From Mycolicibacterium mageritense (GTDB lineage: Bacteria > Actinomycetota > Actinomycetes > Mycobacteriales > Mycobacteriaceae), in assembly GCF_010727475.1 (NCBI RefSeq), contig NZ_AP022567.1, forward strand, positions 2,481,910 to 2,513,909: a stretch of DNA of 32,000 nt. The letters run 5' to 3'. Position 1 is the first letter of the stretch. The number at the start of each line of letters is the position of its first letter. Shown here piece by piece: positions 6,103 to 32,000 of this stretch. The position numbers and the translations under genes were made by a program. Below the pieces are notes generated by a model that searched no databases, was not told the DNA's origin, and worked only from the letters and a program-made list of their open reading frames with translations.

Positions 6103-6154
6103 CTAACAGCTCCTTAGTTCAGGCCGAGGGCCAGGCAGCGCCTCGGCGGACGCG

Positions 6155-10108: not shown

Positions 10109-11302
10109 TCAACGCAGCCGTGGCACGCGGCGATTGCGGTTGAACCCCTCGGCCACCGACGCGGTGAGATCCAGAAAGGCTTGCCGCGTCTTGCGATTCA
10201 GCAGATCCATCGATATCTCGGCGCCTTCGGCGAGGTGATCGTCGAACGGGATCACCACCACGTCGCGCACGCGGGCCTTGAAGTGCATGGTCAGCTGATC
10301 GATGTCGACGGGCACGGCGCCGGGCCGCGCCGAGCTGAGCACCACCGTGGCGTCGGGCACGAGATGGGCGTGGCCGTGATGCTGCAGCCAGTCCAGTGTC
10401 GCCAGGGCGCTGCGGGCCGAATCGATCGCCGGCGAGGCCACCAGGACCAGGGCATCGGCCGCGTCGAGCACGCCGTTCATGGCCGAGTGGGTCAAGCCGG
10501 TGCCGCAGTCGGTGAGGATGATGTTGTAGAAGCGATCCAGGATGTCGTGCACGGCCCGGTAGTCGGCCTCGGAGAACGCTTCCGACACTGCGGGATCGCG
10601 CTCAGAGGCCAGGATCTCCAGCCGGCTCGGGCTCTGTGAGGTGTGCCTGCGCACGTCGGAGTAACGGAAGATCTCCTGGTCGGCCAGCAGGTCGCGGACC
10701 GTGGAGCGAGTCTCGCTCGGGCCGCGCTGGGCCAGCGTCCCGAAGTCCGGGTTGGCGTCCACCGCGATCACGCGGTCGCCCCGGTTCGCGGCGAACGTCG
10801 AGCCGAGGCACACCGTCGTCGTTGTCTTCCCGACGCCGCCCTTGAGGGACAGCACGGCGATGCTGTACGCGCCGCGGACCGGCTGGTTCACCCGGTCCAG
10901 AGCGCTCTGCAGACGCGGATCTGCTTGCGGCTCAGGGAGATTCATCGTCCCGCCGGTCATGCGGTTCATGACCTTGCGCCAGCCGTTCTGGTGCGCCTGC
11001 TTGCGCGGGCGCAGCCCGAGCTCCTCGGCCGTCGTCCGCCGCGTGTAGATGACGGTCGGCTCATCCGGCACCGCGGCCGTGAAGTTCGTCGAAATCGGCG
11101 TCAGGCCGTGCGGCTGCGGCCGAGGATCCTGCGGGGGCGGTGGCGGTGGGGGCAGATATGGCTGCGGCTGGGGCGGAGGTGGCGGCGGGACAGCTTGGCC
11201 GTTCGAAGGCGGAGCCGGCTGACCGGAGGGCGCGCCGGGCACACGGATCGGCGTGGTCGCCTCATCCGGCTGCTGGTGGCCGTCAGGATCGGTCGGGGTC
11301 AA
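10109..11302 (-). CDS. EspI-like ESX-associated ParA/MinD-family ATPase with proline-rich N-terminus
   Basis: 397 aa. TTG start overlaps the eccA stop (TTGA, 11302-11299). N-terminal PPPPPPQPQPYLPPPPPPPQDPRP. C-terminal deviant Walker A SLKGGVGKTTTT, then DANPDFG and ILTDCGTG. Same architecture as ESX-1 EspI (Rv3876). Confidence 0.75.
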   Translation of the reverse strand: MTPTDPDGHQQPDEATTPIRVPGAPSGQPAPPSNGQAVPPPPPPQPQPYLPPPPPPPQDPRPQPHGLTPISTNFTAAVPDEPTVIYTRRTTAEELGLRPRKQAHQNGWRKVMNRMTGGTMNLPEPQADPRLQSALDRVNQPVRGAYSIAVLSLKGGVGKTTTTVCLGSTFAANRGDRVIAVDANPDFGTLAQRGPSETRSTVRDLLADQEIFRYSDVRRHTSQSPSRLEILASERDPAVSEAFSEADYRAVHDILDRFYNIILTDCGTGLTHSAMNGVLDAADALVLVASPAIDSARSALATLDWLQHHGHAHLVPDATVVLSSARPGAVPVDIDQLTMHFKARVRDVVVIPFDDHLAEGAEISMDLLNRKTRQAFLDLTASVAEGFNRNRRVPRLR

Positions 11303-13116: not shown

Positions 13117-13272
13117 CCGTGGATCCCTATCTTTCGTCCGAACAACGTGGGGTTTCGCGGATTCGTCGACGCAGGCAACGCAGCCCCCAGCGGACAAATT
13201 ACTGCAGCCCGGCCTCCTGCGATTGTACTAAGTTGACACCTAGACGGCGTCCGAGTGTTTGGGGAGGTGCCG

Positions 13273-13599
13273 ATGGAGGTCCGGCCGGTGCGGTCGTCGG
13301 GTGGCGACATCCAGGTACTGACGACCGAACGGGGTCTGCCGATCCGGCTCAAACTCAGCCAGCGCGCGCTTGCGCAGGCTCCGCAGGATCTGGCGCAGGA
13401 GCTCCTGACGCTGTGCCAGCTCTCGGCCAAGCGGGCCCAGGTGGCACACCGGCGGGAATTGGCGCAGCGGGGGTTCAGCTCTGAGCTGGTTCGCAATTTC
13501 AACCTCGCGACCGAGGACGAGCTCGCGGCGGCCGAGGCCGCGTTCCGCGGCGACGACGACGAGGACGGTCCGCCCGATACGTGGATGAGGTCGGTATGA
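13273..13599 (+). CDS. Small YbaB/EbfC-EspL-like protein (core only) with acidic tail
   Basis: ATG 13273 with GGAGG 5 nt upstream. 108 aa. GGDIQVLTTERGLPIRLKLSQRALAQAPQDLAQELLTLCQLSAKRAQ resembles the YbaB/EspL core. Stop overlaps the next ATG (ATGA, 13596-13599). Confidence 0.55.
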   Translation: MEVRPVRSSGGDIQVLTTERGLPIRLKLSQRALAQAPQDLAQELLTLCQLSAKRAQVAHRRELAQRGFSSELVRNFNLATEDELAAAEAAFRGDDDEDGPPDTWMRSV

Positions 13600-13949
13600 A
13601 CGGCGGCCTGGCGGATTCGTTGATCGCGCGAATCATCAAGCAGCGCGATCTGATGCAGGCGATGGACGAGCACCTCAAGTCCATCTCCGCGCGGGTCACC
13701 AGCCGGGATCAGTCGGTCAGCGTCGAGGTCGACGGCATCGGGACTCTCAAGGGCATCTGGCTCGGCGAGAACGCGTACCGACATGGGCCGGACGGGCTGG
13801 CCCGGTTGATCATCGAGACCGGGCAGGCCGCTGCCAAGACCGCGCTGGACCGGCAGAACTACCTGATGAAGGAGTTCAACAGCCGGCTCGCGGCACTTCA
13901 GCAAACCCCGCTGACGAAGTGGGACGGAACGACGGTGACACCGTCGTGA
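13596..13949 (+). CDS. YbaB/EbfC-family, EspL-like protein
   Basis: 117 aa. N-terminal helix (LIARIIKQRDLMQAMDEHLKSISARV) followed by SVSVEVDGIGTLKGIWLGENAY...GLARLIIETGQAAAKTA. This is the same layout as YbaB and Mtb EspL (Rv3880c) from memory. Confidence 0.7.
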   Translation: MNGGLADSLIARIIKQRDLMQAMDEHLKSISARVTSRDQSVSVEVDGIGTLKGIWLGENAYRHGPDGLARLIIETGQAAAKTALDRQNYLMKEFNSRLAALQQTPLTKWDGTTVTPS

Positions 13950-14114
13950 TGGAACCGGTTATCTGTTTGCCGGCAGGTCAACCAGCGTTTGCTTGGCCTT
14001 GATGCGACTACAAGTGGGACAAAAATATGTGTTAGCTGCCCCTTGTGGCGCGGGTTATAGTTCCGAAAGGGACTAAAACCACAGCTACTTGGCAGTAACC
14101 GGGGAGGGGTAACG

Positions 14115-14405
14115 ATGTCCGACACCATGAAGGTTGTTCCTGGTGTGCTGGAGGCGTTCAACGCGGCCAACAGTGCAGCTGGTGCGACGATCTCGGCGGC
14201 GGGCTCCGCAGATGCCGCTGCCATGAGCAGCGCGGTGGCCACCGCCATCGGGCCGATCGGGTTGATCTACCTGAACGGATTCCTTCCGGCGATGTTCACC
14301 AACCTCACGCAGACCGTTGACGTCGGCCTGAACCACACCTTGATCGGTGCCGCGACCGAAGTTACGAAGGTGTCCACGGTCGCCACGGACGCTTCGTTCA
14401 CCTGA
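14115..14405 (+). CDS. Small helical T7SS-substrate-like protein (PE / EspC-EspF-like)
   Basis: ATG 14115 with GGAGG upstream. 96 aa, Ala-rich. N-terminal MKVVPGVLEAFNAANSAAG... follows the L-x-V-x-P-x-x-L pattern of PE/EspC-type proteins. Sits 3 nt upstream of a large WxG protein. Confidence 0.55.
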   Translation: MSDTMKVVPGVLEAFNAANSAAGATISAAGSADAAAMSSAVATAIGPIGLIYLNGFLPAMFTNLTQTVDVGLNHTLIGAATEVTKVSTVATDASFT

Positions 14406-14408
14406 CCC

Positions 14409-15809
14409 ATGCCGGCCACTCCAGCGCCGCCGGGCAATCCGACGCCGGTAGCCCCGTCGGTTCCGATCAGCCCAAGCCACCCCGGGAGCAGTGCACCTGC
14501 CCCGGTGTTCGATCCCACGCCGTACATCAACGCGCAGGAACAGAACCTCGCGGATTATCTGAATCAACCGGTCCAGGACATCCTCGCCAAGCTCGGGCTC
14601 CCGCCGCTGCCCAACGGTGCACCGCCGCCAGGTGAACCGCCGCCGGAGGGACAGCCGGGGCCCGCGAATCCCATGGATCCCAGCGCGATGATCCAGCCTG
14701 TGCTCGACGCACTCGGCACGTTGGGAACCGGGATCTTCGACAGCGTCGACCCGACCAAGATGTTCGAGGGCATCTCGAAGGCATTCGAGTCCGCATCCAG
14801 CTCGGTGCAAGAAGCACTCGGCTCGATGGAGGGCATGTGGTCGGGGGCTTCGGGCACCTCGGCCGCCGCCAAGACCGGCGAGACGCTGGCCAACGGTGCC
14901 CAGGTGGCATCCCAGTCCGCGGGGTTGGGTGCCAACCTGTCGACGTCGGTGGCCGATGTTCAGCAGGCCCAGATTCGGTTGTTGCAGATCATCGACGAGT
15001 ACAACGCCAAGATCGCGGCCATCGGGCCCAACATCATCTTCCCGTGGGGCCAGGCCCAGGCCGTCGAGGCGGCGACCCAAGCCATCACCATGACCACCGA
15101 GGTCATCACCGAGCTGCAGACCACGCTGGCCGCGCAGGGCGGCGAAGCCGCCGCGATCGGTGCGCCGACGGCACTGGCACAGGCGCCGACGGCCGCTTCT
15201 TCCATGATCAGCCCGATGATCCAGATGGCGACGGGCCTGGCGTCACCGCTGATGCAGGTTGCGACCGAAGGGCTGTCGACCGGCATGCAGACCATCACCG
15301 GTGCGGTGCAGAGCGGCGTGGAAACCGCGACGGGGCTTGCCTCGAGCCTCAGCGGCGCCGCGGGGAAGGGTGCCGACACCGCCGCGTCCACGGCCAGTGG
15401 CACCGGTGGCGCCGGGATGGCTCCGCTGAGCAAGGCCGGCGGAGGCGGCGGAGGAGGAGTACACGGTGGCGGAGGTGGCGGCGGCTCGTCGTCGGTGGCC
15501 CCGTCACGCATGATGACGCCGATGTCGATGCCCACCACCGAATCGACCAACGCCGTCCAGGGTGCCGTCAAACCCGCGTCCGTGTCCGGCGCGAGCATGG
15601 GCGGCGGCGGCATGGGCGGCGCCGGGATGATGGGCGCCGGCCACGGCGCGGGCAAGGCCGGAGTCGACGGCAGCGGACACAATGCCGCGGCGTTCCTGCA
15701 CACCTCCGATCAGGGCGACGAGATCGTCGGGGATCTCGGCAATGTGGCCCCGCCGGTGATCGGTGAGATCGACCCCAACGACAGTCCAGACATCGAACTG
15801 AGAATCTGA
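14409..15809 (+). CDS. Large WxG-containing T7SS-substrate-like protein (EspA/EspE/PPE-related architecture)
   Basis: 466 aa. Pro-rich N-terminus, then a helical region with W-x-G (MEGMWSGASGTSAAAK). A/T/S/Q/M-rich middle, poly-Gly (GGGGGGGVHGGGGGGG), Gly/Met-rich tail MGGGGMGGAGMMGAGHGAGKAG and C-terminal VAPPVIGEID. Confidence 0.6.
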   Translation: MPATPAPPGNPTPVAPSVPISPSHPGSSAPAPVFDPTPYINAQEQNLADYLNQPVQDILAKLGLPPLPNGAPPPGEPPPEGQPGPANPMDPSAMIQPVLDALGTLGTGIFDSVDPTKMFEGISKAFESASSSVQEALGSMEGMWSGASGTSAAAKTGETLANGAQVASQSAGLGANLSTSVADVQQAQIRLLQIIDEYNAKIAAIGPNIIFPWGQAQAVEAATQAITMTTEVITELQTTLAAQGGEAAAIGAPTALAQAPTAASSMISPMIQMATGLASPLMQVATEGLSTGMQTITGAVQSGVETATGLASSLSGAAGKGADTAASTASGTGGAGMAPLSKAGGGGGGGVHGGGGGGGSSSVAPSRMMTPMSMPTTESTNAVQGAVKPASVSGASMGGGGMGGAGMMGAGHGAGKAGVDGSGHNAAAFLHTSDQGDEIVGDLGNVAPPVIGEIDPNDSPDIELRI

Positions 15810-19179: not shown

Positions 19180-20610
19180 ATGTGCTTTGACGACATCGGA
19201 GACGCCATCGAGTCCGGCGCCGAATGGCTGGACAACTGGGGCGAGGAGAATCTGGGTCTGCCCGGGATGTTCACGGACTGGACCACGTACGACGGCGAGT
19301 ACAAGGACGGCAGCGGCAAGGTCGACCTCAGCGAAGTACCCGGCGGCTACCCGGTGGACGCCCTCAATGTCGCGCCCGGCTCATACACCACGGTCGCATT
19401 CACCGATGTGTACGACAACATGAAGAACGCCGGCGAGAACGTCACGAACGGGCACGCTGCGATATGGGAACAGATCTCGAACACCATGTCGCAAGCCGTC
19501 ATGACGTACAAGACCTTCCTGGAAGGCATCCGGGACTCCGACGATAACTGGGTAGGTAAGGCGGCGGATTCCGCCAACCAGAACATCACCACGTCGTTCG
19601 CTCAATTGGATGGCGCATCCAAATCGTCCACCGCGATGGTCCATCTGGCGCCAGCCTTCGCCACGACCATCGGCAATGTGGTCAAGGAAGTCGTCCACCG
19701 CAAGAGTGACTACGACGACGACATGAGTTCCTGGCCCGATCACCGGGACCAGATCAAGCGGGAGTACGACACGCTCGCGCAGTCCGTCATGTCGGACTAC
19801 GCCTCGAACATCGGCCAGATCGCGACGAAGAATCCAGACTTGACGGGTGGCAAGGAGAATCCCGAGAAGCCGGGACCGGCCGCCCCCACCAACACTCCGA
19901 CGAACTACGGTGGGCCGTCCAACAGCGGTGGCGGATCACCCAGTAAGGGTTCGGGCGCGGGCAAGCCGGACCTCTCCGGACTCAAGAAGACCACGGCCAA
20001 ACCGAATTTCGATCCCACGAAGCTGCAGCAGCAGACCACGCCGCAAAAGACCACGCCGCAGACGAGCACACCCAGCTTGCCGACCCAAGGGTTGACCGAT
20101 GCGGCCAAGGCCGCACAGGATGCTGCCAGTCAGGGGCTCGACGCGGCGAAACAAGCCATGGATCAGGCGCTCGGCAACAATCAGAATCCGTCTGGTCTGC
20201 CTGAAGGCGTTCTTGGGCTCGGCCCGAAGGGGCTGAGCGGTGCGGGCAAGGGCACCGGAGGTGGCGGCGGCCGTGCAGGCGGTGGCAGCGGCAGCGGTTC
20301 GGGGGCACGCACGTCGCCGCTGGCCCGCAACGCCGGTACCGCAACGGCGGCTACCACGAAAAGCACCGGCGCGACGACCACGGCCGCGCGATCCGGTATC
20401 AGTGCCGGTTCGGGTGCACCGGGCGCAGGGGCACCGGCTGCCGGGCATCGCGGCAACGGGGCCGACGGTTCGGTTCACAAGGCGAACAAGGCGTTGCGCC
20501 GCAAGAAGAACGGCGAGAACGTGATGGGCGACGCCGAGGCAGTGGTGGCGGTTGTCGGCGATGACACACAAGAACCGCGGATGGTTGTTCCGGCAGCTGC
20601 TGAGAAGTGA
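19180..20610 (+). CDS. Large WxG-containing PPE/EspB-like T7SS-substrate-like protein with disordered C-terminal half
   Basis: 476 aa from ATG 19180 (GGAG 5 nt upstream). The helical domain HAAIWEQISNTMSQAVMTYKTFLEGIRDSDDNWVGKAADSANQN... contains W-x-G at aa 124-126. This is followed by a P/T/Q-rich tract and a Gly-rich tract (GKGTGGGGGRAGGGSGSGSG) and a basic tail. The overall layout resembles EspB. Confidence 0.55.
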   Translation: MCFDDIGDAIESGAEWLDNWGEENLGLPGMFTDWTTYDGEYKDGSGKVDLSEVPGGYPVDALNVAPGSYTTVAFTDVYDNMKNAGENVTNGHAAIWEQISNTMSQAVMTYKTFLEGIRDSDDNWVGKAADSANQNITTSFAQLDGASKSSTAMVHLAPAFATTIGNVVKEVVHRKSDYDDDMSSWPDHRDQIKREYDTLAQSVMSDYASNIGQIATKNPDLTGGKENPEKPGPAAPTNTPTNYGGPSNSGGGSPSKGSGAGKPDLSGLKKTTAKPNFDPTKLQQQTTPQKTTPQTSTPSLPTQGLTDAAKAAQDAASQGLDAAKQAMDQALGNNQNPSGLPEGVLGLGPKGLSGAGKGTGGGGGRAGGGSGSGSGARTSPLARNAGTATAATTKSTGATTTAARSGISAGSGAPGAGAPAAGHRGNGADGSVHKANKALRRKKNGENVMGDAEAVVAVVGDDTQEPRMVVPAAAEK

Positions 20611-21605
20611 CGTTTCTGTCGTCGGCGGCCCTGCTCTTGCCACCTGCCACGCCCCTTACGGATCCAACCCTGGATATCAGCGGTAGATGGCGCGGAGTGT
20701 CCGCATCCCCCGGCCGCTCCCCGGTGGACATGGCGGTACAAGCCGGGCGGGCGGCAATCTCCGCCTCCGCGGTGTCGTCCACCGACGTCCGGTGGACCCT
20801 GCATGCGGGTTCGGGATATCAAGGCCCGATGGGTTGGCCCATCCACCACGGGATCCAACACGGCATCGTCGGCAACGTAGGCAATGCGCTCGAGGTCAAG
20901 CAATACTGTGCCGCGGGCCTCACCACGTGGATCATGGCGTCCAGCATGCTCTCTGGCGATGACGGCGCAGTCGTGTGCACAGGTGCCGACAACTGGTCGT
21001 GGGGCGACCGTTACGCGACCTCCCGCTCCGCGGGCGGGGAGCCGTTTTCAGATGTGGCGCACGCAGTCGTGCTCACCGGCGGCGACGGGTTCGCGGATAT
21101 CCTCGGATACGGGACCGCAAGCTGTCCCGGTCAGGCCCGAGTGTGGCAGACCCGAGAGAGTTTCTGGGAGAACGCGTCACTCGACGATTACCGCGCTGCC
21201 TATGAGCGTGCCGTTGCTGCGCACCGCCCAGAGGACGCCCGTGATTCCCTGCGGATGCTGGTTCGAGCGGTGAGGTCGGCACTTTCCGCGGCGGCGTTGA
21301 GTCCGCAGTACATCACTCATTTCATTCCGCATGGAACAGGCAGTGGCGAACCGTACCGAACCTTGGCCGACAAGATCGGGCTGCCGTGGTCGGAGGCCCT
21401 GTACGACTACCAGGTCGCCCAGGGATACCTCGCCGTCAGCACTCAGGTCGCCGGGCTGATTCATTGTGCCGAAACGGGTTTGAAGGCGGATTCCATCGTG
21501 CTTCTGGTGGCCGCGGAGTACCAGCTGAGCGCCACGGCCGTGGTCCTCAGAATCCTGCGGACCCCGCAAGTATCAGGAGACGGCGACGTTAGGGTGATGG
21601 CGTGA
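20607..21605 (+). CDS. KAS III (FabH)-like thiolase-fold protein with non-canonical catalytic residues
   Basis: 332 aa. GTG start overlaps the upstream stop (GTGA, 20607-20610). Colinear by eye with FabH: NALEVKQYCAAGLT (Cys101, TGT 20907-20909) vs AACAGF; HFIPHGTGSG (His242) vs VPHQAN; QGYLAVST (Tyr274) vs HGNTSAAS; C-terminal LLVAAEYQLSATAVVLR vs LLEAFGGGFTWGSALVR. Confidence 0.65.
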   Translation: MTFLSSAALLLPPATPLTDPTLDISGRWRGVSASPGRSPVDMAVQAGRAAISASAVSSTDVRWTLHAGSGYQGPMGWPIHHGIQHGIVGNVGNALEVKQYCAAGLTTWIMASSMLSGDDGAVVCTGADNWSWGDRYATSRSAGGEPFSDVAHAVVLTGGDGFADILGYGTASCPGQARVWQTRESFWENASLDDYRAAYERAVAAHRPEDARDSLRMLVRAVRSALSAAALSPQYITHFIPHGTGSGEPYRTLADKIGLPWSEALYDYQVAQGYLAVSTQVAGLIHCAETGLKADSIVLLVAAEYQLSATAVVLRILRTPQVSGDGDVRVMA

Positions 21606-22372
21606 GCAGGATCCCGATGAATCACGTCGGCTCGATCGACGTGGTCGATCTCACCGTCGTGAGCCGCGATCATGGTCGGGATTTCATCCCGTTCCCATTC
21701 ATGCAGACGCGTGCGTCCACAGTCGATCCCGAGGCTTTCGAGATGCACGCCCGCAAGGTGATCGAGAGGTTCTACAACGGTGACCTGAGTGTTCTCCAGA
21801 ACTGGGCAGGCACCTACGTGCGGGCGGACATCCGCGTCGAAGCCCACGTCCAGTTCATCCCAGCGGACAAGACCAGCGTTCGTGTCGTCGCCCACCGAAT
21901 GGGTGAGAAAGGCTACTTCGCGAGGCAGACAGACGCTGACGTGATCGAGATCTTCTCGTTGTCGCCTTACGATCTCGGTGAAGCAGTTGCGGAATCGATG
22001 GGCACGGTCACTCCCGGCAACCGCCCCGCGATCGTTGTCCCCGAGTACCAGGCACCCCCGTCGCCCGTCGAGGAAAGCGATGGGATTTCCGTCCGATCTC
22101 ATCGCGACTCCGACGAGATCGCCAAGATCGCTCGTGGCGAGATCAGTGCACTGGCGACTGTGCAAAGCCATTGGCGGCCCACCCGCAGGTGGGGAGTCGA
22201 CCGCGGGAAGAATGCGGTCGTGTGGGTGCGGGTACAAGATGACGGCGATTACCTGTATGCACCGGATTACACTGTGGCACAACCGATGTCAAAACCGCAG
22301 CTGGCTGCTCGGATCAACCGGCTGATTGCCGATGACGTCGCCGTGCTGCGCAGGTTCCGCGACGGCGCATAA
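21602..22372 (+). CDS. EspG-like protein (second copy, divergent)
   Basis: 256 aa. GTGA overlap with the upstream gene; alternative ATG at 21617. Same block order as the EspG at 17255 (DFIPFPFMQTRAS..., ...ADIRVEAHVQFIPADKTSVRVVAHRMGEKGYFARQ...EIFSLSPYDLGEAVAESMG, C-terminal ...VVWVRVQDDGDYLYAPDYTVAQPMSKPQLAARINRLI). Assignment made by eye only. Confidence 0.5.
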   Translation: MSRIPMNHVGSIDVVDLTVVSRDHGRDFIPFPFMQTRASTVDPEAFEMHARKVIERFYNGDLSVLQNWAGTYVRADIRVEAHVQFIPADKTSVRVVAHRMGEKGYFARQTDADVIEIFSLSPYDLGEAVAESMGTVTPGNRPAIVVPEYQAPPSPVEESDGISVRSHRDSDEIAKIARGEISALATVQSHWRPTRRWGVDRGKNAVVWVRVQDDGDYLYAPDYTVAQPMSKPQLAARINRLIADDVAVLRRFRDGA

Positions 22373-22802: not shown

Positions 22803-23048
22803 CACCTGGTTCTCCACCGGAGTCAAATCGTAGTTCTCGTCCAGATAGCGTGTTGACCGTCTCTCGGGATGACGACCACGAGGTACTCATCCGTCATTGA
22901 GCTTGCCGATGTGACCGTTGGCGTGGTCGCCAGGTTGATCTTGGTCGTGTGCACCATCAGTGTGACGAGGAACTGATGGGTCGCGCGGCACCCCGCTGAA
23001 GTCTTGGTGGGCTCGCAGGGTGCCGCGCTGTAGTGCACGGAGGCACCG

Positions 23049-23695
23049 ATGGTGACGGTAGAGGCTGATCTGGTCTGCGTCGAGTCCCGGCTGGCGGCCG
23101 GCCAGATCCGCTGCCCGGCGTGCCCGCAGGGCGTGCTGGCTGGATGGGGATTCGCCCGCACTCGCCGCGTGGTGGGCCTGGGTCTGGCCGGTGCGGTTCG
23201 GCCACGGCGGGCGCGATGCCGATCGTGTCTGGTGACCCATGTGTTGTTGCCGGTCACGGTGCTGCTGCGCAGAGCGTATGCAGCCGAACAGATTTGGATG
23301 GCATTGGCTGCTCGCGCACAGGGGGTGGGGCACCGCCGGATCGCCGCTGGACTCAACGTTCCGGCGACCACGGTGCGGGCTGGCTGCGCCGGGCCAGCGG
23401 CCGACTGGAGGCGATCCGGGCGCGGTTCATTCAGATGGCGGTGCTCATCGGGATCGACGTGACGATCCCCGACGAACAGAGCTATCCCTGGGGTGACGTG
23501 GTGGCCGCGGTCGATGCCGCGGCGGCGGCGATCGGGCAGCGGTTCGGGCCGGCCGGGTTGGTGGGCGCGGTGACGCCGGCGCAGGTGATGGTCGCGGTCA
23601 GCGGCGGCCGACTGCTGGCATCGGACTGGCCGGTGGCGTTACCGGCGCCGTTCACAACACCAGTTGCCCCTGATGCGCCACGTGGGAATCGGTGA
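23049..23695 (+). pseudogene. Transposon-associated Zn-ribbon + HTH protein, split by a frame break
   Basis: The frame from ATG 23049 (CPACPQG...CRSC, then ...HRRIAAGLNVPATTVR) continues sensibly only in the frame of ORF 23120-23695 (GWLRRASGRLEAIRARFIQMAVLIG...). The switch is at the G3 run 23377-23379, where one more G would give ...TTVRGWLRR.... Confidence 0.6.
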
Positions 23696-23761
23696 TCCTC
23701 GCGAAGGCACCTGCCCGACAAACAGTTTCGGGCCGGGCCATTGACTGTGTGAGGAGAGACG

Positions 23762-25213
23762 GTGTCGTTGGAAGAGCACAAGCGTCGGGAGCGGGCCCAG
23801 GCGATCGGCTTGTTCCGCTATCAGCTGATCTGCCCCGCCCTGGAGGCGGGGTTGTCGACCAAACAGCGGGGCCGGCTGGTCCGCGAGATCGCGCAGCGCA
23901 CCCATGTGGACCCGTTCGGCACCCGGGTGCAGATCGCACGACCGACCCTGGACCGCTGGATCCGCCGCTACCGGGCCGGCGGGTTCGAAGCGCTGGTGCC
24001 CGAACCGCGGCGACTGGCCACCCGCACCGACGTCCAGGTGCTGGAGTTGGCCGCGTCGTTGAAGCGGGAGAACCCCTCGCGCACCGCGGCGCAGGTGGCC
24101 CGTATCCTGCGCACCGCCACTGGCTGGGCGCCCTCGGAATCCACGTTGTTGCGCCATTTCCACCGCTGCGAACTGATGGGCCCAGCCGCCGGGACCAGCG
24201 GTGAGGTGTTCGGCCGGTTCGAAGCCACCGACCCCAACGAGCTGTGGGTCGGCGACGCCCTGCACGGCCCGCGGGTCGGAGACCGCAAAACCTACCTCTT
24301 CGCCTTCCTGGATGATCACAGTCGACTGGTGGTCGGGCACCGGTTCGGGTTCGCCGAGGACACCGTGCGCCTGGCCGCCGCGTTGAAACCCGCGCTGGCC
24401 GCCCGCGGCGTGCCCGCCTCGGTCTACGTCGACAACGGCTCGGCCTTTGTTGATGCGTGGCTGCTGCGGGCGTGCGCGAAACTCGGAATCCGGCTGGTGC
24501 ATTCGGCACCCGGCCGGCCGCAAGGACGCGGGAAAATCGAACGGTTCTTCCGGACGGTGCGCGAACAGTTCCTCGTCGAGGTCACCGACACCACCGTCGA
24601 GGACCTTGCCGCCGCCGGGGTCGACCATGCTGGCGCCCTGTTGGAGCTCAACCGGCTGTTCATGGCGTGGGTGGAAACCGAATACCACCGCCGGGTGCAC
24701 TCGGAGACCGGGCAATCCCCGCTGGCCCGGTGGGAGACCGGCTGGGAACGCGTCGGGCGCACCCCGGCATTACCGACGGCAGCGGATCTGACCGAGGCGT
24801 TCCTGTGGTCGGAATTCCGGGTGGTGACCAAGACCGCCACCGTCTCCCTGCACGCCAACACCTACCGGGTTGACCCCGCCCTGGCCGGCCGCCGCGTCGA
24901 GCTGGTGTTCTCCCCGTTCGACCTCGAGATGATCGAGGTCCGCCACGGCGGCCAGAGTTTCGGTGCCGCGGTGCCTCACACCATCACCCGCCACGCCCAC
25001 CCGAAAGCCCGACCCGAGACCGTCGAGACCCCGCCGGCAACGACGGGGATCGACTACCTGGCGTTGACCGCCGCCGCCCATCACGAGCAGCTACGCGACG
25101 ATGAACGTATCGGCTATCACGCCCTCTACGGTGATCATCATCTGCCCGGTCAGCTCTCGCTCACCGACATTGACAACATCGATGGCGAGTTCGAGGACGG
25201 GGTGTCGGCGTGA
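23762..25213 (+). CDS. DDE (rve-type) transposase, Mu / TniA / Tn552-p480-like
   Basis: 483 aa, GTG 23762 with GAGGAG 5 nt upstream. N-terminal HTH regions. Catalytic-core motifs LWVGDALHG, VYVDNGSAF and GRPQGRGKIERFF. C-terminal Mu-transposase-like beta domain. Confidence 0.85.
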   Translation: MSLEEHKRRERAQAIGLFRYQLICPALEAGLSTKQRGRLVREIAQRTHVDPFGTRVQIARPTLDRWIRRYRAGGFEALVPEPRRLATRTDVQVLELAASLKRENPSRTAAQVARILRTATGWAPSESTLLRHFHRCELMGPAAGTSGEVFGRFEATDPNELWVGDALHGPRVGDRKTYLFAFLDDHSRLVVGHRFGFAEDTVRLAAALKPALAARGVPASVYVDNGSAFVDAWLLRACAKLGIRLVHSAPGRPQGRGKIERFFRTVREQFLVEVTDTTVEDLAAAGVDHAGALLELNRLFMAWVETEYHRRVHSETGQSPLARWETGWERVGRTPALPTAADLTEAFLWSEFRVVTKTATVSLHANTYRVDPALAGRRVELVFSPFDLEMIEVRHGGQSFGAAVPHTITRHAHPKARPETVETPPATTGIDYLALTAAAHHEQLRDDERIGYHALYGDHHLPGQLSLTDIDNIDGEFEDGVSA

Positions 25214-26025
25214 GTATTCAACGGCTGCAATCACATTGGGGATTCACCCGGATGCCGTTCGGCCGGGATCTGGCCCCGTCGATGCTGCACCGCCACCCCG
25301 GCCACAGCGAAGCGATCGCCCGGATCGGCTGGTGTGTGGACCAATGCGCCATCGGGGTCATCACCGGCGAAGTCGGCGCCGGCAAAACCGTCGCGATCCG
25401 CGCGGCGGCCACCTCCTTGGATCCGGCGCGGCACGTCATCATCTACCTCGCCAACCCCACCATCGGAGTCCGCGGCATGCTTACCCACATCGTGGCCACC
25501 CTCGGGCACACCCCGGCGTTTCACACCGCCCGGCTGGCTCCCCAGGCCGCCGACGCCTTGGCCGCCGAGCACGCCGAACGGGGCCGCAACCCCGTCCTCG
25601 TCGTCGATGAAGCCCACCTGCTCGACAATCATCAACTCGAAGCGATCCGGCTGCTCACCAACCACGACATGGACAGTGGTTCCCCGTTCGCCGTCGTCCT
25701 GGTCGGGCAACCCACCCTGCGGCACCGACTGCGCCTGGGGGTGCTGGCCGCGTTAGATCAGCGCGTCGCCGTGCGCTACACCCTGCCCGGCATGACCGCG
25801 GCCGACACCGCCGACTACATCGGGCATCACACCAAGATCGCCGGCCGCTCCGATGCGCTGTTCGCCGATGACGCGATGACGCTGATCCACAACGCCTCCC
25901 GTGGACATCCGCGCGCGGTCAACAACCTCGCCCTACACGCGCTCACGGCCGCGTTCGCCGCCGGGCATTCCATCGTCGGGGAGAAAGCCGCCCGCATCGC
26001 CATCAGCGAAACAGCAACCGACTGA
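25210..26025 (+). CDS. AAA+ transposition ATPase (TniB / ExeA / Tn552-p271-like)
   Basis: 271 aa. GTGA overlap with the transposase gene. Walker A GEVGAGKT, Walker B VLVVDEAHLL, and ...LVGQPTLRHRL... typical of the AAA_22/TniB-type partner of rve transposases. Confidence 0.85.
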   Translation: MSIQRLQSHWGFTRMPFGRDLAPSMLHRHPGHSEAIARIGWCVDQCAIGVITGEVGAGKTVAIRAAATSLDPARHVIIYLANPTIGVRGMLTHIVATLGHTPAFHTARLAPQAADALAAEHAERGRNPVLVVDEAHLLDNHQLEAIRLLTNHDMDSGSPFAVVLVGQPTLRHRLRLGVLAALDQRVAVRYTLPGMTAADTADYIGHHTKIAGRSDALFADDAMTLIHNASRGHPRAVNNLALHALTAAFAAGHSIVGEKAARIAISETATD

Positions 26026-26035
26026 ACCTAATCCG

Positions 26036-26095
26036 CGTCACCACGGCGACGACCACGTCACCGCGACGAGGATCCCGTCACCGAGATCACCAACG
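26036..26095 (+). repeat. Three phased direct repeats (heptamer CGTCACC every 20 bp), candidate transposase-binding sites
   Basis: CGTCACC at 26036, 26056 and 26076 (exact 20-bp spacing): CGTCACCACGGCGACGACCA / CGTCACCGCGACGAGGATCC / CGTCACCGAGATCACCAACG. Begins 11 nt after the ATPase stop. Confidence 0.7.
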
Positions 26096-26124
26096 CCCCG
26101 CTCGCCACAAGCGAGCGGGGCGTT
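26092..26124. terminator. Strong hairpin between convergent genes (terminator-like)
   Basis: 14-bp perfect stem AACGCCCCGCTCGC (26092-26105) / GCGAGCGGGGCGTT (26111-26124), loop CACAA. Lies 7 nt downstream of the minus-strand stop at 26132-26134 and 66 nt after the ATPase stop. Confidence 0.55.
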
Positions 26125-26131
26125 CTCATCA

Positions 26132-27229
26132 CTACATCGTCATCAACACCGATGACGCCGACATCGTCATCTTCAGCGACGGCCAACAATAGCGTGCGAC
26201 GAGTTGGCCGGCGGTGTCATAGAAGAGTAGCCCGTCGCCCTTGCCCGACTCCTGGAAGGAGTAGGCGAATCCGCCGTTGTACACCAACGCTTTGCGGATG
26301 ATTGTGCCCTCGGGTGGCGTGGGCGTAAGGTCCGCTCCATCGAGGGCCGAGAACATCCGGTAAGGCGCCTCGGGATCGCTGGGCAGCGGGTTCTGCATCG
26401 CGACAGTCTGTGCCGGAATGTCGGACACTTGCAGATAGCCGGGGTTGAAGATGCTGCCCCCACCGGGGACAAACCAAGTTCGTTCGCCGTTCGGCCCCAG
26501 GCCGTAGACGCCTTCGCCCTCGCGTCTGGCGACCAGGCGCGTCTCACCCAGGTAATTGCCGATCGCTGCGACCACGTACTTGTCGCTTGCACTCTCGCCT
26601 TGTGGGAAGAGGTCGGTGGGGCCGGTGAACGTCACCTTGCCCTGTTCGAGATCGATGATCCAGATCAACTGCGCCAGACCTACTTCAGGGTCGCCCTCGG
26701 CGAGGCATACGGCAGTCCCCGGGCCGTTGCCGTAGCAGTCGCCGAGCGGATTGCCGCGAAACCCGGTCAATTCGATCGGCTGGAACAACAATTTGCCCGA
26801 ATGGATGTCGACACCGTAGACCCAGCCCGCCGGTGACAGGCCCTGCGAATCCGTTCTGTCGGTGATGAAGTACGCCTTGTCTTTGGTGCTGGCGAAAAGT
26901 GACCCCACCCCGACTTCAGGTGGGAGGCCGATGTCCGCGGCACTGACCTTCCAACCAGGCACCGGCTTCTTTTCCAGCGAGAACGCGATAAGCAGATCTT
27001 TGGGGGTGCCGATTGTGGCGTCGATGTGCGCGTTGGTTCCACGGACGGAGCGCCACACCACCACACCGCCGACGATAAGTCCGACCACTACTGCGATCAC
27101 CAGCACTGGCATCCACCAACGACGTCGCGGCTTGGCGGTGCGGGTTGACGCGGCGACTGGCGGGCCCCCACTGGGGGAGTCCACCCAGCGGAATCCCTCT
27201 TGTGGCCAGTTGGATCCCGAATCCGTCAC
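26132..27229 (-). CDS. Single-pass membrane protein with large beta-rich (propeller-like) ectodomain
   Basis: 365 aa, GTG 27229 with AAGGGG upstream. RRRWWMPVLVIAVVVGLIVGGVVVW TM anchor, then a beta-strand-rich domain. No family recognised. The last ~18 aa (CWPSLKMTMSASSVLMTM) look non-native. Confidence 0.6.
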   Translation of the reverse strand: MTDSGSNWPQEGFRWVDSPSGGPPVAASTRTAKPRRRWWMPVLVIAVVVGLIVGGVVVWRSVRGTNAHIDATIGTPKDLLIAFSLEKKPVPGWKVSAADIGLPPEVGVGSLFASTKDKAYFITDRTDSQGLSPAGWVYGVDIHSGKLLFQPIELTGFRGNPLGDCYGNGPGTAVCLAEGDPEVGLAQLIWIIDLEQGKVTFTGPTDLFPQGESASDKYVVAAIGNYLGETRLVARREGEGVYGLGPNGERTWFVPGGGSIFNPGYLQVSDIPAQTVAMQNPLPSDPEAPYRMFSALDGADLTPTPPEGTIIRKALVYNGGFAYSFQESGKGDGLLFYDTAGQLVARYCWPSLKMTMSASSVLMTM

Positions 27230-28488: not shown

Positions 28489-29579
28489 CTAGTGTCCTGC
28501 GCCGGGAATTCGTTGAAGATATGAACCGAGTCGTTCGAAGATCTCGTCGGCGGTCTTGGTCCAGTTGAACGGGCGGGGGTTGTCGTTCCAGTCTGCGATC
28601 CACTCGCGAATGTCCTTCTCGAGGGCCTGAATTGAGCGGTGAACGCCGCGGCGCAGTTTCTGGTCGGTGAGTAACCCGAACCACCGCTCGACCTGGTTGA
28701 GCCACGACGAGTAGGTCGGGGTGAAGTGCATGTGGAATCGGGGATGGGCGGCAAGCCATTTGGTTACTGTCGGCGATTTGTGCGTCGAGTAGTTGTCGCA
28801 GATCAGATGGACGTCCAGGTCAGCGGGCACGGTGTTGTCCAACTTGGTCAAGAACTTCTTGAACTCGATCGCGCGGTGCCGGCGGTGAATCGAGCCGTAG
28901 ACCTCGCCGGTGGCCACATCCAGGGCGGCGAACAAGGTGGTGATTCCGTGCCGCACGTAGTCATGGGTGCGGCGCTCGGGCATGCCGGGCATCATCGGCA
29001 GGACCGGCGCGCTGCGATCCAAGGCCTGGATCTGCGATTTTTCATCGACGCAGAGCACCAGTGCCTTCTCCGGCGGGTCCAGATACAACCCACGACGTCA
29101 CGGACCTTGTCGACGAACTGCGGGTCGTTGCTGATCTTGAAGGTGTCCACCTGATGCGGCTTGAGGCCGAACGACTTCCAGATCCGTCCGACCGTTGACT
29201 TCGACAACCCGGTCTCAGCCGCCATCGAAGACCGCGACCAGTGCGTGGCGCCTTTGGGTTGACGCTCCAACGTGGCCACGATCAGCTGCTCGACCGCCTC
29301 GTCGGTGATCTTGCGCGGCGCACCAGGACGCGGCTCATCGGCCAGACCCTCCAGTCGCGCCTCCAGGAACCGTCCACGCCATTTGCCGACCGTTTGCGGC
29401 CACACACCTTCATCAGCGGCGACTTCCTTGTTGGATTTCCCTGCCGCGCAACCCAACACGATCCGACAACGTTGGGCCAACGCCTGCGAGGACTTCGATC
29501 GACGGGCCCACCGCTGCAACGTCTCACGTTCGTCGTCGGTCAACACCAACTCGACTACCGGCCTACCCCTGGTTCCCAC
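28489..29579 (-). CDS. IS630-family DDE transposase in two frames (orfA 29579-28992, orfB 29088-28489)
   Basis: The orfA HTH part (...ETLQRWARRSKSSQALAQRCRIVL...) and the orfB DDE part (YLDPPEKALVLCVDEKSQIQALDR...HLICDNYSTHK...YSSWLNQVERWF) join as ...KVRDVVG|LYLDPPEKA only with a -1 shift at GGT TGT (plus strand 29086-29091). Confidence 0.85.
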
Positions 29580-29623
29580 CCGCCAATTCTACAATTAATC
29601 AACTAATTTACGGCGCAGGACAC
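28492..29623 (-). mobile_element. IS630-family insertion sequence (1132 bp) with TA target duplication in a CTAG target
   Basis: Terminal inverted repeats GTGTCCTGCGCCGGGAATT (28492-28510) and the reverse complement of 29605-29623, GTGTCCTGCGCCGTAAATT (17/19 matches, first 13 perfect). Flanked by TA at 28490-28491 and 29624-29625. The reconstructed target is ...TTCGAC-TA-GACC... = CTAG, the classic IS630 preference. Confidence 0.92.
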
Positions 29624-29876: not shown

Positions 29877-30347
29877 GTGAGCAACGACGCGGCTCGGCAT
29901 GAGCTCGCCGAGGTGCTGGCGCTCGCCCAGGAACAAATGGCCGATCTGGCCGCCGTCCAGAAGAAGCGTGCCGCGCTCACCGCGAGCGCCACAGTCGCCG
30001 ACGGGACGGTCGAGGTGACGGTGAACGCGCAGGGCATCGTCACCCGCACGGTGATCGACGAGACATACCTGGACGAATTCGAGTTCGCCGATCTCGGTGA
30101 CTACATCACCACCGCGGCCCAGGCCGCGGCGCGTGACGTGGGGAAGCGGTCGGCGGAACTGCTGGTCCCGATGACTGAACGCCGCAAGAAATTCCCGGCG
30201 TTGTCCGACATCGTCGAAGGCGCGCCAGACTTCCGCGAGTGGATGCCGGACCTGACGCCACTTCGCCCCGAATCCGCCGCTGCCGCAGGCCCCGGAGATG
30301 ACGACGGTGATGACGACACTTCCTACACCCCCACTGTGAGGAGATAG
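29877..30347 (+). CDS. YbaB/EbfC-family, EspL-like protein with acidic C-terminal extension
   Basis: 156 aa, GTG 29877 with GGGGAGG 6 nt upstream. N-terminal helix (LAEVLALAQEQMADLAAVQKKRAAL) followed by DGTVEVTVNAQGIVTRTVIDETYL...LGDYITTAAQAAARD. Confidence 0.7.
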   Translation: MSNDAARHELAEVLALAQEQMADLAAVQKKRAALTASATVADGTVEVTVNAQGIVTRTVIDETYLDEFEFADLGDYITTAAQAAARDVGKRSAELLVPMTERRKKFPALSDIVEGAPDFREWMPDLTPLRPESAAAAGPGDDDGDDDTSYTPTVRR

Positions 30348-30349
30348 CG

Positions 30350-30646
30350 ATGAGCCAACCGCTGGGTGTGACACCCGAAGGCTTGCGGGCCACCTCCGAC
30401 CATTTGGCCGACGTGAGTTCGCGGATGAAGGGCGTGCTGTCCACGCTCCAGAACAACCTCAGCAGTGAGGGCGCAGCCTGGGGCGACGACAAGATCGGCA
30501 GCCAGTTCGCCGACGGTGGCGATGGCTACCTCGCCCAGGTGGATTGGGTCGACGGCTCGATCGATGCCAAGACCGGACTGTTGGACAACTATTCAGAGGG
30601 CTTGCGAACTGCTGCTGACACGCTCGAGCAGCAGGACCAGGCGTAG
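30350..30646 (+). CDS. Small EspC/WXG100-like helical protein
   Basis: 98 aa, ATG 30350 with GAGGAG upstream, 2 nt after the previous stop. N-terminal LGVTPEGLRATSDHLADVS parallels EspC (LTVQPERLGVLASHHDNAA, from memory). W-x-G present (GAAWGDDKIG). Confidence 0.65.
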   Translation: MSQPLGVTPEGLRATSDHLADVSSRMKGVLSTLQNNLSSEGAAWGDDKIGSQFADGGDGYLAQVDWVDGSIDAKTGLLDNYSEGLRTAADTLEQQDQA

Positions 30647-30684
30647 TTCTGACTGAATCGTGTTGATCGGCAAGGGGATCTCAC

Positions 30685-32000
30685 GTGGGCATTGAGATCC
30701 CCCCCGGTTTGCAATGGGTTTCGTACCTCACCGGCTCGGAATGGCCGCAGGGCGACGAAACGGCCATGCGCCGCATTGGCGACTACTGGCGCGACGCGGC
30801 CAGTGACCTGTCCGACCTGATACCCGACCTGAACCGGGTGCGCTCGGAAACCATGTCGGTGCTGATGGGCGAAACCGCCGACGCGGCCGAAGAGCAATTC
30901 GCCATGCTGTTCGACGGTGACTATTCGGTCGACAAACTCTCACAGGCGATGTCCGCCCTGGGTGATCTGGCCGACGGGGCCGGCACGGAGATCGAATACA
31001 CCAAGCTGCAGATCATCACGTCGTTGGCCATCGCCGCGGCGGAGATCGCCTGGGCGCTCGCCGCGGCGCCGGAGACTTTCGGCGGCTCACTGAGCCTCAT
31101 ACCGCCGGCCGAGGCCGCGACCATCATGACGGTGCGCCAGCTGGTGATGATGCTGTTGCGCCAACTGCTCCGAAAACTCGGCGAGGCCATGACCAAAACC
31201 ATGGTCCGCCGACTACTCAGGGAGGCCGCGCAGGAAATCGCCATCGGCCTCGGCCAGGAGCTGGCGATCCAAGGCTTCCAGGTCGCGCAGGGCAACCGAG
31301 ACGGAATCGACTGGAAGCAAGCTGGAATCGTCATCGCCGCTTCCGGAATCGGTGGGGCGGTCGGGTCGCCCGTGGGCGAGGGCCTGACCCGCGCCATGGG
31401 CCGGTCGGACAACCCAGTGACCAATGCTCTCAAGGGTGCCTTGAGTGGCTACGGGGCGGGTATTGCCGGCAACGTCGCCGGAACGCTCGGAACGGGCGGC
31501 GATCTGGATGCCGTCTCCATCTTCGGCGGTGCGGCCAGCAGCGCAGCGACCGGCGGTGTGCACGGCGCCAAGAGTGGCTCCCACGGTAATTCAAACAATG
31601 GCAACGGCAGACCGGACACGGGCTCGCCGGGGCGTCCTGACATCAACGGCGCCAACGGTTCCCGCCCGAACGGCGAAACGGGCAACAACGGGCAACAGAC
31701 CCACAACGGCAACGACCATCAATCGTCAAGCAACACTTCGACTTCTACCTCGCATTCCTCGTCGGACACCAACAGTCATGCCGGAGTGTCGCAGTCGCAA
31801 GACACCTCCGCCGGCTCGCCCGCCACGAGCACCTCACAGGATCCGGTATCGCACACCGCTCCCTCCTCTTCGACGTCCACCAACGGGGACGGTGGCTCGC
31901 ACAGTGCGTCCGCCACGCACAGTGGTGACAGCGGACCTTCCGGGCCGTCGGAGACCAGCCACGCCCCGGCCGGACAGGACGGCAGCTCGGCCCAGCACGA
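30685..32000 (+). CDS. Large T7SS-substrate / polymorphic-toxin-type protein, 5' part only (runs off window)
   Basis: Not in the supplied ORF track. GTG 30685 with AAGGGGA 7 nt upstream. I read 438 codons to nt 31998 without a stop. N-terminal helical domain VGIEIPPGLQWVSYLTGSEWPQGDETAMRRIGDYWRDAASDLSDLIPDLNRVRSET...AEEQFAMLFDGDYSVDKL. Hydrophobic and Gly-rich segments (LQIITSLAIAAAEIAWALAAA; GIVIAASGIGGAVGSPVG). The sequence then turns N/G/S/T/H-rich and low-complexity up to the edge. Confidence 0.75.
   Translation, partial: MGIEIPPGLQWVSYLTGSEWPQGDETAMRRIGDYWRDAASDLSDLIPDLNRVRSETMSVLMGETADAAEEQFAMLFDGDYSVDKLSQAMSALGDLADGAGTEIEYTKLQIITSLAIAAAEIAWALAAAPETFGGSLSLIPPAEAATIMTVRQLVMMLLRQLLRKLGEAMTKTMVRRLLREAAQEIAIGLGQELAIQGFQVAQGNRDGIDWKQAGIVIAASGIGGAVGSPVGEGLTRAMGRSDNPVTNALKGALSGYGAGIAGNVAGTLGTGGDLDAVSIFGGAASSAATGGVHGAKSGSHGNSNNGNGRPDTGSPGRPDINGANGSRPNGETGNNGQQTHNGNDHQSSSNTSTSTSHSSSDTNSHAGVSQSQDTSAGSPATSTSQDPVSHTAPSSSTSTNGDGGSHSASATHSGDSGPSGPSETSHAPAGQDGSSAQH

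Follow-up and report, generated by a model that had tools for sequence, protein, structure and literature searches.

A 6.2-kb gene in an ESX island of Mycolicibacterium mageritense that probably encodes a secreted polymorphic DNase toxin

The stretch of DNA analysed here, referred to below as the window, comprises 32,000 nucleotides (nt) of the soil mycobacterium Mycolicibacterium mageritense (assembly GCF_010727475.1, contig NZ_AP022567.1, positions 2,481,910 to 2,513,909 of the forward strand). An open reading frame (ORF) that starts at position 30685 and runs off the right-hand end of the window is, in our judgement, probably the 5' portion of a gene of 6.2 kb encoding a polymorphic DNase toxin secreted by an ESX, or type VII, secretion system (T7SS). 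A T7SS-exported polymorphic toxin had been proposed at this place in an earlier, sequence-only reading of the window, and that interpretation is supported, with corrections concerning the helper genes and polymorphism within the species.

Translation of the frame gives 438 sense codons and zero stops up to the window edge, as the sequence-only reading had stated, and the peptide strings it quoted are all present. The GTG start lies 6 nt 3' of AAGGGGA, the good Shine-Dalgarno sequence it had noted. It had also explained why the frame is missing from the program-made ORF list: the list leaves out run-off ORFs, and this frame is absent solely because it leaves the window. These observations are confirmed.

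30672-30678, + strand: Shine-Dalgarno-like AAGGGGA, read off the sequence, 6 nt before the GTG
30685-32000, + strand: 5' part of the toxin gene, 1,316 nt (438 of 2,082 codons), from translation and comparison with locus L003

The window is 66% GC, a composition at which long chance ORFs are frequent, and several such ORFs are in the list. The frame at 30685 is coding rather than a chance high-GC ORF because of its GC content at codon positions 1, 2 and 3 (0.62, 0.56 and 0.80), its Pfam match (see below) and its homologues. There were 101 database homologues at E ≤ 1e-5, and those that were aligned begin within a few residues of the GTG. Public gene calls use the same start in seven assemblies. 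In an eighth, locus L006 (L006:10336-10420; GCA_020907445.1), a 1-bp indel close to the toxin gene's 5' end shifts the frame past residue 7, and the public call there starts 82 nt later and gives 2,055 amino acids (aa); it reflects either a sequencing error or incipient decay.

The full-length gene was traced by an exact-sequence look-up of the 98-aa protein encoded upstream, which returned eight contigs. Locus L003 (GCA_000612825.1, same species) has both of the insertion sequence (IS) insertions present in the window, and its toxin residues 1-438 are identical. The L003 gene has a length of 6,249 nt (2,082 aa); if the numbering of the window is extrapolated, its stop codon would finish at 36933. 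The exact 2,082-aa protein was found also on an 8.0-Mb contig, and its RefSeq product name is 'alpha/beta hydrolase'. The sequence-only reading had placed the effector end and any immunity gene beyond the window and had suggested extending the contig. The frame does not stop soon past the window edge without an effector domain: in the same-species assemblies it continues to a C-terminal Ntox15 domain, which is followed by a GAD-like, Tdi1-like gene.

Pfam gave three domains for the full-length protein: WXG100_2, Abhydrolase_8 and Ntox15. The Ntox15 match (PF15604) covers aa 1920-2044 with E = 1.3e-9 and 38.7 bits, against a cut-off of 22.5. The HxxD motif of this family is intact, with H2005-E-Q-D2008 aligning with HNPD of the Bacteroidales Tde1 crystal structure 8fzz_A, and just after it the toxin sequence INSSLGSIW aligns with INSSIGSQW of the same structure. 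In Bacteroidales Tde1, HxxD is the active site of a Mg-dependent DNase, and mutation of the motif abolishes activity (PMC10470768). The C-terminus is a predicted DNase domain of the Ntox15 (Tde) type. Within M. mageritense (L001-L007), the few Ntox15 substitutions cluster at aa 1983-1995, the 13 residues just before the HxxD helix.

A convergent gene of 217 aa begins 14 nt past the toxin stop. Its product matches Pfam GAD-like (2e-23; 82.8 bits, cut-off 25), Agrobacterium Tdi1 Atu4351 (6itw_A, E = 1.8e-5, residues 7-204) and also Bacteroidales Tdi (8fzz_B). As judged from these matches, the protein belongs to the immunity family known to neutralise Ntox15 toxins. The gene is kept beside the toxin gene in 7 of 7 M. 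mageritense assemblies examined and in M. peregrinum. The latter species has two GAD-like genes (L014:16259-16918 and L014:20145-20804, both on the - strand), whose products are 77% and 87% identical to the M. mageritense protein, the distal copy being the closer. A further immunity gene, 60% identical, stands amid unrelated metabolic genes in Nocardia asteroides (L095:9001-9654), with no toxin nearby.

At the other end of the protein, the part that lies within the window consists of a helical domain (hereafter the N-domain), a glycine-rich segment and the start of a linker.

30712-31125, + strand: WXG100_2 (PF25547), core of a PPE-like helical bundle (aa 1 to ~175), predicted T7SS targeting domain, from Pfam, AlphaFold2 and Foldseek
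31210-31572, + strand: Gly/Ala-rich, glycine-zipper-like segment (aa 176-296), from composition; candidate membrane-insertion module
31573-32000, + strand: start of a ~440-aa S/P/T/G/N/H-rich low-complexity linker (aa 297 to ~740), from composition; runs on past the window

WXG100_2 was matched with E = 3.4e-24 at aa 10-147 of the window fragment and with 8e-23 in the full-length protein; NCBIfam gave zero family matches for the fragment. An AlphaFold2 model of residues 1-300, made with 29 sequences, has a pLDDT of ~90 over a helical bundle at aa 1-170 and low confidence beyond. The top PDB match of the N-domain in Foldseek is PPE41 of the PE25-PPE41 complex (4w4k_B; TM 0.62, probability 1.0, E 0.034), with other PPE chains and EsxA (3zbh, TM 0.78 over 90 residues) also matched, and most of the top places are taken by T7SS substrates. 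The Pfam PPE profile was not matched by the N-domain, nor the PE profile by the 98-aa partner. UniRef labels the N-domain family CpnT-like, the Pfam/UniRef family name alone being the link to CpnT. The proposal that this is a delivery domain of T7SS toxins, similar to T7SS-family profiles, holds well, given the strong PF25547 match and the resemblance of the model to PPE41 and EsxA.

The segments that the sequence-only reading had described after this domain, hydrophobic and glycine-zipper-like and then an N/G/S/T/H-rich linker, were found as well. Residues 176-296 are 22% Gly and 17% Ala and contain 18 small-xxx-small-xxx-small motifs; G203, G223, G224, G259 and G290 are nearly invariant across the alignment of the N-domain family. 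From aa 297 onward the protein is S/P/T/G/N-rich (S 16, P 14, T 14 and G 11% over aa 297-740), with no Pfam match.

Three + strand genes with little space between them form an apparent operon, of which the toxin gene is the last. These and two other genes of the window that bear on export are as follows.

29877-30347, + strand: YbaB/EbfC-fold (EspL-like) gene, 156 aa, candidate chaperone or accessory factor; Pfam YbaB_DNA_bd, E = 1.1e-12
30350-30646, + strand: WXG100/PE-like helical partner, 98 aa, predicted targeting partner of the N-domain; Pfam WXG100
21602-22372, + strand: EspG-family gene, 256 aa, candidate chaperone of the PPE-like N-domain; ESX-1_EspG on record for the product, link to the toxin putative
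11299-13197, - strand: EccA-type AAA+ ATPase of the T7SS; Pfam T7SS_EccA1_N, E = 2e-111, plus AAA; PDB matches EccA1, EccA5 and EccA3

The first two genes are separated by 3 nt. The role suggested for the YbaB-like protein is by analogy with EspL. The 98-aa protein passes the WXG100 cut-off narrowly (27.5 bits against 27.3), has sub-threshold matches to EspC (21.3 bits) and PE (E = 0.086), and is highly conserved, W44-G45, Y81 and E93 being invariant in 17 homologues. The sequence-only reading had seen in an EspC/WXG-like gene before the toxin the helper arrangement of esxE-esxF-cpnT. A WXG100/PE-like gene does precede the toxin gene, but the helpers are a YbaB-like protein and a single WXG100-like one, not an esxE-esxF pair, and EspC was matched only below threshold.

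To survey the family, the N-domain alignment was scanned against one genome per species, which gave 285 confirmed stretches, of which 80 were fetched; the loci are from Mycobacteriaceae and Gordonia, with further ones in Nocardia and Actinomadura. A homologue of the YbaB-like gene lies next to the N-domain gene in 47 of the 80 loci and a homologue of the 98-aa gene in 45. EspG homologues are present in 13 of 80, and in ten of them lie ~1-2.7 kb upstream of the N-domain gene.

The window also holds a ParA-like gene, PE, PPE, two EspG genes and small WXG100-like genes, and a contig that shares ~99.7% identity with the window has MycP, EccD and EccC at 7-10 kb past the toxin stop. With EccA, PE, PPE and EspG in the window and EccC, EccD and MycP downstream, the toxin gene lies inside an ESX island.

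In the surveyed loci the N-domain occurs in two forms, as stand-alone genes of ~300-326 aa (about 25 loci) and at the front of giant ORFs. Of the latter, 20 are complete (1,542-3,599 aa), and another 20 run past 3,500 aa and meet no stop within the fetched DNA; a recorded M. setense gene of 6,940 aa has three Abhydrolase_8 domains, GDPD and Gln_amidase domains.

L016, L030, L046-L049, L057, L059, L060, L062, L063, L067-L070, L072, L076, L080, L081, L083, L091 and L013:1-3807: giant ORFs fronted by the 300-aa N-domain
M. peregrinum (L014) and Mycobacterium sp. ST-F2 (L015): Ntox15 C-terminus, 2 of the 20 complete giants
L019: Endonuclease_NS_2 plus TNT C-terminus, 1 of 20
L064: Endonuclease_NS_2 C-terminus, 1 of 20
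Actinomadura/Spirillospora loci: ADP-ribosyltransferase (ADPrib_exo_Tox) C-terminus, 7 of 20
Remaining complete giants: C-terminus without a recognised domain, 9 of 20
For example L017, L018, L020-L026, L028, L029, L031, L033-L041, and L012 and L013 at 6001-6942: stand-alone copies of ~300-326 aa, with the N-domain and glycine-rich segment only

Internal domains of the giants include Gln_amidase, Abhydrolase_8, a SecA-like DEAD module and RelA_SpoT. The SecA-like DEAD/preprotein-binding module is inside the L032 protein, and L073 has RelA_SpoT with two ADP-ribosyltransferase domains. Independently, relatives of the Abhydrolase_8 domain have TNT or CdiA-tRNase ends.

Comparison with L015 is informative about the ends. 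The body of the protein is 73-89% identical between M. mageritense and L015, the Ntox15 end 31.5% and the immunity protein 34%; by these identities the toxin end and immunity protein of L015 have diverged together, as is typical where a toxin-immunity module has been swapped. The prediction of a polymorphic toxin was thus right at the level of the family, where the same N-domain is joined to four recognised types of end and L015 diverges as described, but not within the species. A comparison of C-termini among strains, which had been suggested as a check, showed them to be conserved: in seven M. mageritense assemblies there is no C-terminus swap, and the strains differ at 0-36 of the 2,082 aa of the toxin and at 0-5 positions of the immunity protein.

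The stand-alone copies are constant in length, are followed by YbaB-like and 98-aa genes of their own, and lie a few genes 3' of a giant toxin gene. No stand-alone copy is present at the corresponding place in M. mageritense. Also 3' of the toxin gene, in 28 of 80 loci, is a gene for a conserved cytoplasmic protein of 505 aa (L003:17772-19289), which has a weak YezG/DUF600-like immunity match (E = 0.0066). The gene after it in M. mageritense was tested as a candidate stand-alone copy of the N-domain, and is not one.

Between the linker and the Ntox15 domain the 2,082-aa protein has further domains. The Abhydrolase_8 match at aa 902-1076 (9e-25) is the strongest of the domain matches. This lipase-like hydrolase keeps a GHSYG nucleophile elbow at aa 1012-1016, where it is weakly similar to Pseudomonas lactonizing lipase; a literature search on the function of Abhydrolase_8/DUF1023 found none. 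These features, together with the existence of more than 100 actinobacterial proteins of ~590 aa made of a helical N-region and an Abhydrolase_8-type hydrolase only, would suit a protein whose main role is that of a secreted or surface lipase/esterase, in nutrition or in remodelling of the envelope, its Ntox15 end being vestigial. We regard this as very improbable, since HxxD and the flanking Ntox15 motifs are intact and a cognate-type immunity gene is retained in the seven M. mageritense assemblies and M. peregrinum, both of which argue for an active DNase.

Two other stretches were assigned more tentatively. At aa ~1215-1390, a Cys in NDC and a His in GSH (Cys1236 and His1314) are invariant in five orthologues, and a local hidden Markov model of this stretch matches parts of relatives that are assigned by Pfam to Gln_amidase (papain fold toxin 1), which hints at a divergent papain-fold domain. 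The stretch at aa ~1590-1880 is rich in A, R, D and E, a composition consistent with a coiled coil. Pfam searches at E ≤ 10 with aa 151-300, 701-900, 1101-1420 and 1401-1920 gave no usable match.

In 16 of 20 other loci the giant toxin ends with the ~130-residue domain found here at aa 1420-1550 (L003:14593-14985), and a DUF7161 gene follows directly. In M. mageritense, L014 and L015 this domain is separated from DUF7161 (L003:17495-17758) by the coiled coil and Ntox15 extension and by the GAD-like gene. This arrangement suggests that the aa 1420-1550 domain and DUF7161 may be an older toxin-immunity pair, to which an Ntox15-Tdi cassette would have been added later. In all, the enzymatic or toxic domains of the protein number two at the least and perhaps four.

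For a secreted DNase toxin, the following mechanism can be proposed. The 98-aa protein would pair with the N-domain as PE does with PPE, creating a composite export signal, and the YbaB-like protein, possibly with EspG too, would hold the complex in an export-competent form, with the immunity protein keeping the DNase inactive in the producer. The ESX machine would export the complex. The Gly-rich segment and the long disordered linker might then position the distal enzymatic domains at the cell surface or set them free there, and the hydrolase, acting on the envelope, might perhaps help the DNase to enter; both of these steps are speculative. The DNase would enter neighbouring actinobacteria that lack the immunity protein and degrade their DNA.

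The composition of the family also bears on the target. A CpnT-like effector directed at eukaryotic cells such as amoebae or macrophages, with an immunity gene that only protects the producer as IFT does for TNT, would account for the CpnT name of the N-domain family in UniRef and for same-N-domain relatives with TNT or ADP-ribosyltransferase ends, which are able to act on eukaryotic targets. The immunity gene by itself says nothing about the target, which the authors of the PEST study of related cassettes (discussed below) also leave open. All characterised Ntox15/Tde toxins, however, are antibacterial DNases, the orphan immunity gene of N. asteroides and the second copy in M. peregrinum fit an interbacterial arms race, and the helper set is unlike esxE-esxF. 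A eukaryotic target therefore seems improbable.

Mobile DNA is present in the region in the form of IS21 and IS630 elements and a conjugation-associated beta-propeller family gene, and phage defence has been raised as a possibility for PEST cassettes. An intracellular addiction or abortive-infection module, acting without export to stabilise the island or against phage, could be read from this. It would leave unexplained the 1,900-residue N-terminal extension with its T7SS-type domain, the WXG100 and YbaB partners and the ESX position, and no phage or plasmid relative was found; we consider it extremely improbable. A phage origin was rejected because neither the N-domain nor the Ntox15 end had a tblastn match among 50,697 phage records, and a plasmid origin because the searches gave weak partial matches only.

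One of these elements is close to the operon.

28493-29621, no strand assigned: IS630-family insertion; the empty site in L006 joins 28492 and 29622; DDE_3/HTH transposase domains on record

It interrupts a 279-aa gene upstream of the operon, with 255 bp between the element and the YbaB start, and other strains lack it (L003 has the same insertion). On this ground, and with the 1-bp indel of L006 near the toxin 5' end, the gene might be intact but silent or decaying in this strain. That is highly improbable in our view, as the frame is complete, with the few substitutions across strains given above, the immunity gene is conserved, and 255 bp can hold a promoter. The transposase of the IS630 copy is encoded by two overlapping ORFs in different frames (28489-29088 and 28992-29579, - strand), the draft L003 assembly differing there by a 1-nt indel.

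The IS21-family element lies in 22853-26188, with istA at 23762-25213, istB at 25210-26025 and an 8-bp overlap at the empty site. The gene it interrupts encodes a beta-propeller protein of 462 aa (Pfam Conj_beta_prop_9) and is whole in other strains, and an identical 483-aa IS21 transposase is also on two records of ~320 kb, LT703506.1 and CP084587.1. Elsewhere in the window, a second trio at ~13590-15809 (+ strand) consists of a YbaB-like gene, a 96-aa gene with a weak EspC match and a 466-aa Pro/Gly/Ala-rich gene, and is followed by PE-PPE-EspG; it was rejected as a paralogue of the toxin trio, having the same gene order and no sequence similarity. A 332-aa protein with a weak ACP_syn_III_C match (20607-21605) is encoded beside EspG here and in both loci seen (L012 and L013). 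Beside the ESX island, 6155-9922 (- strand) is a GyrA-like gene of 1,255 aa (DNA_topoisoIV and six GyrA C-terminal blades), interrupted by an intein with a LAGLIDADG homing-endonuclease domain, with no adjacent gyrB.

Several points weigh against an ESX-secreted DNase toxin. All toxin sequence past residue 438 comes from other M. mageritense assemblies, and sequence and predicted structure are the sole basis for proposing secretion, DNase activity, neutralisation and a target organism. Some of the matches are weak, namely those of the N-domain in Foldseek (E-values of 0.03) and of the toxin domain to a PDB sequence (8fzz_A, E = 0.037), and the T6SS_Tdi1_C half of the 217-aa protein falls below its Pfam cut-off (24.5 against 27.4 bits). 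The canonical export motif YxxxD/E after the helix-turn-helix is absent from both the 98-aa partner and the N-domain. The components of the neighbouring ESX system do not agree on its type: MycP is about equally close to MycP5, MycP1 and MycP3, the N-domain of EccA is closest to EccA5 and its C-domain to EccA1, and EccD had no PDB match. The IS630 copy upstream might silence the operon in this strain. Finally, passage of a cytoplasm-acting DNase across a mycobacterial envelope is a difficulty for the whole class (PMC13444075).

The family survey admits a bolder interpretation, rather unlikely as it stands. The giant proteins would form an undescribed clade of multi-effector T7SS substrates in Mycobacteriales and Actinomadura-like genera, ranging from 1,500 to at least 6,940 aa, in which a 300-aa module (a PPE-like bundle and a glycine zipper) has its own YbaB-like, WXG100-like and EspG partners. 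The zipper would insert in the mycomembrane, and the linker would display nested toxins, each with its own immunity gene (here aa 1420-1550 with DUF7161, and the later-added Ntox15 with Tdi); the stand-alone copies of ~310 aa would be a pore or translocator. If true, diderm actinobacteria would have in it a 'toxin on a stick' of the CdiA/MARTX sort.

Taken as a DNase toxin gene, the locus would provide a well-resolved chromosomal example, within an ESX locus, for the recently established idea of ESX-toxin warfare between mycobacteria, with a predicted cytoplasm-acting DNase as payload and a recognisable immunity gene. Its toxin nature is hidden in current annotation by the RefSeq product name. 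In the family as a whole, one 300-aa targeting module carries a very large multi-enzyme cargo, which bears on how large multi-domain T7SS substrates pass and on how toxins with cytoplasmic targets cross the envelope. Since M. mageritense is fast-growing and tractable, the locus could be an experimental model. Specialists will be little surprised after the papers of 2021-2026; what makes the locus useful as a model is its size, its nested modules and its conserved set of accessory genes.

Among known systems, the nearest are the T7SS polymorphic toxins with WXG-type N-domains that Zhang et al. (2012) defined in Actinobacteria, in a study that also defined Ntox15 with HxxD. The sequence features of that class are found here: a WXG100-like N-domain, varied C-terminal toxins, a co-varying adjacent immunity gene and a T7SS/WXG100 neighbourhood. 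So are those of the Ntox15/Tde class, with a profile match above cut-off, HxxD and an immunity partner of the Tdi type. Cassettes of WXG100, Ntox15 toxin and GAD/DUF1851 immunity genes are known from M. chelonae/abscessus prophages (McProf, prophiFSIL01-1 and prophiGD43A-5), and the PEST study predicted PE/PPE-like heterodimers and found the cassettes toxic without their immunity gene. The M. mageritense locus is like these PT-Imm/PEST cassettes in having a small WXG100 gene, a WXG100-like (PE/PPE-like) toxin N-domain, an Ntox15 end, a GAD-like immunity gene and predicted ESX export. It differs in lying outside a prophage, within an ESX island with ESX and IS genes as neighbours; in encoding a 2,082-aa protein with an extra hydrolase, a putative papain-fold domain and a 440-aa linker; in the added YbaB-like gene; and in its immunity gene, which is convergent here and co-directional there.

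With Tde1-Tdi1 of Agrobacterium tumefaciens and Bacteroidales the locus shares the toxin family (HxxD) and the immunity family (GAD-like plus Tdi1 C-terminal), but sequence identity is very low, and a T7SS helical domain takes the place of PAAR/Hcp and the type VI secretion system. CpnT/EsxE-EsxF/IFT of M. tuberculosis is similar in combining a large toxin, a helical N-terminal carrier, a linker and a C-terminal toxin with a cytoplasmic immunity factor, the ESX dependence being predicted here. It has two Esx genes rather than one WXG100-like and one YbaB-like helper, and an NAD+ glycohydrolase rather than a DNase domain; the single Esx-like helper and the C-terminal Ntox15 without a TNT match speak against assignment to the CpnT type.

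EatA-TapA1/TapA2-EatI is an ESX-4-dependent arabinanase toxin system in inter-mycobacterial competition (Benedict et al. 2026), and in the accompanying survey alpha/beta hydrolases and nucleases were among the commonest payloads and 400-1000 aa was the typical size. The loci are laid out alike: genes for small helical partners accompany an immunity gene and a toxin whose N-domain is helical. The site of action of EatA is the cell wall, and its inhibitor is a lipoprotein, whereas the predicted target here is cytoplasmic DNA and the protein is 2-5 times longer, with several enzymatic domains. The LXG/Lap toxins of Bacillota (T7SSb) likewise combine a composite helical targeting signal involving small partners with a variable toxin end and an adjacent immunity gene, but their N-domain family, secretion subtype and cell envelope are different. 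Toxins of this kind have thus already been described, and the M. mageritense gene is unusual mainly in its size and its multiple effector domains.

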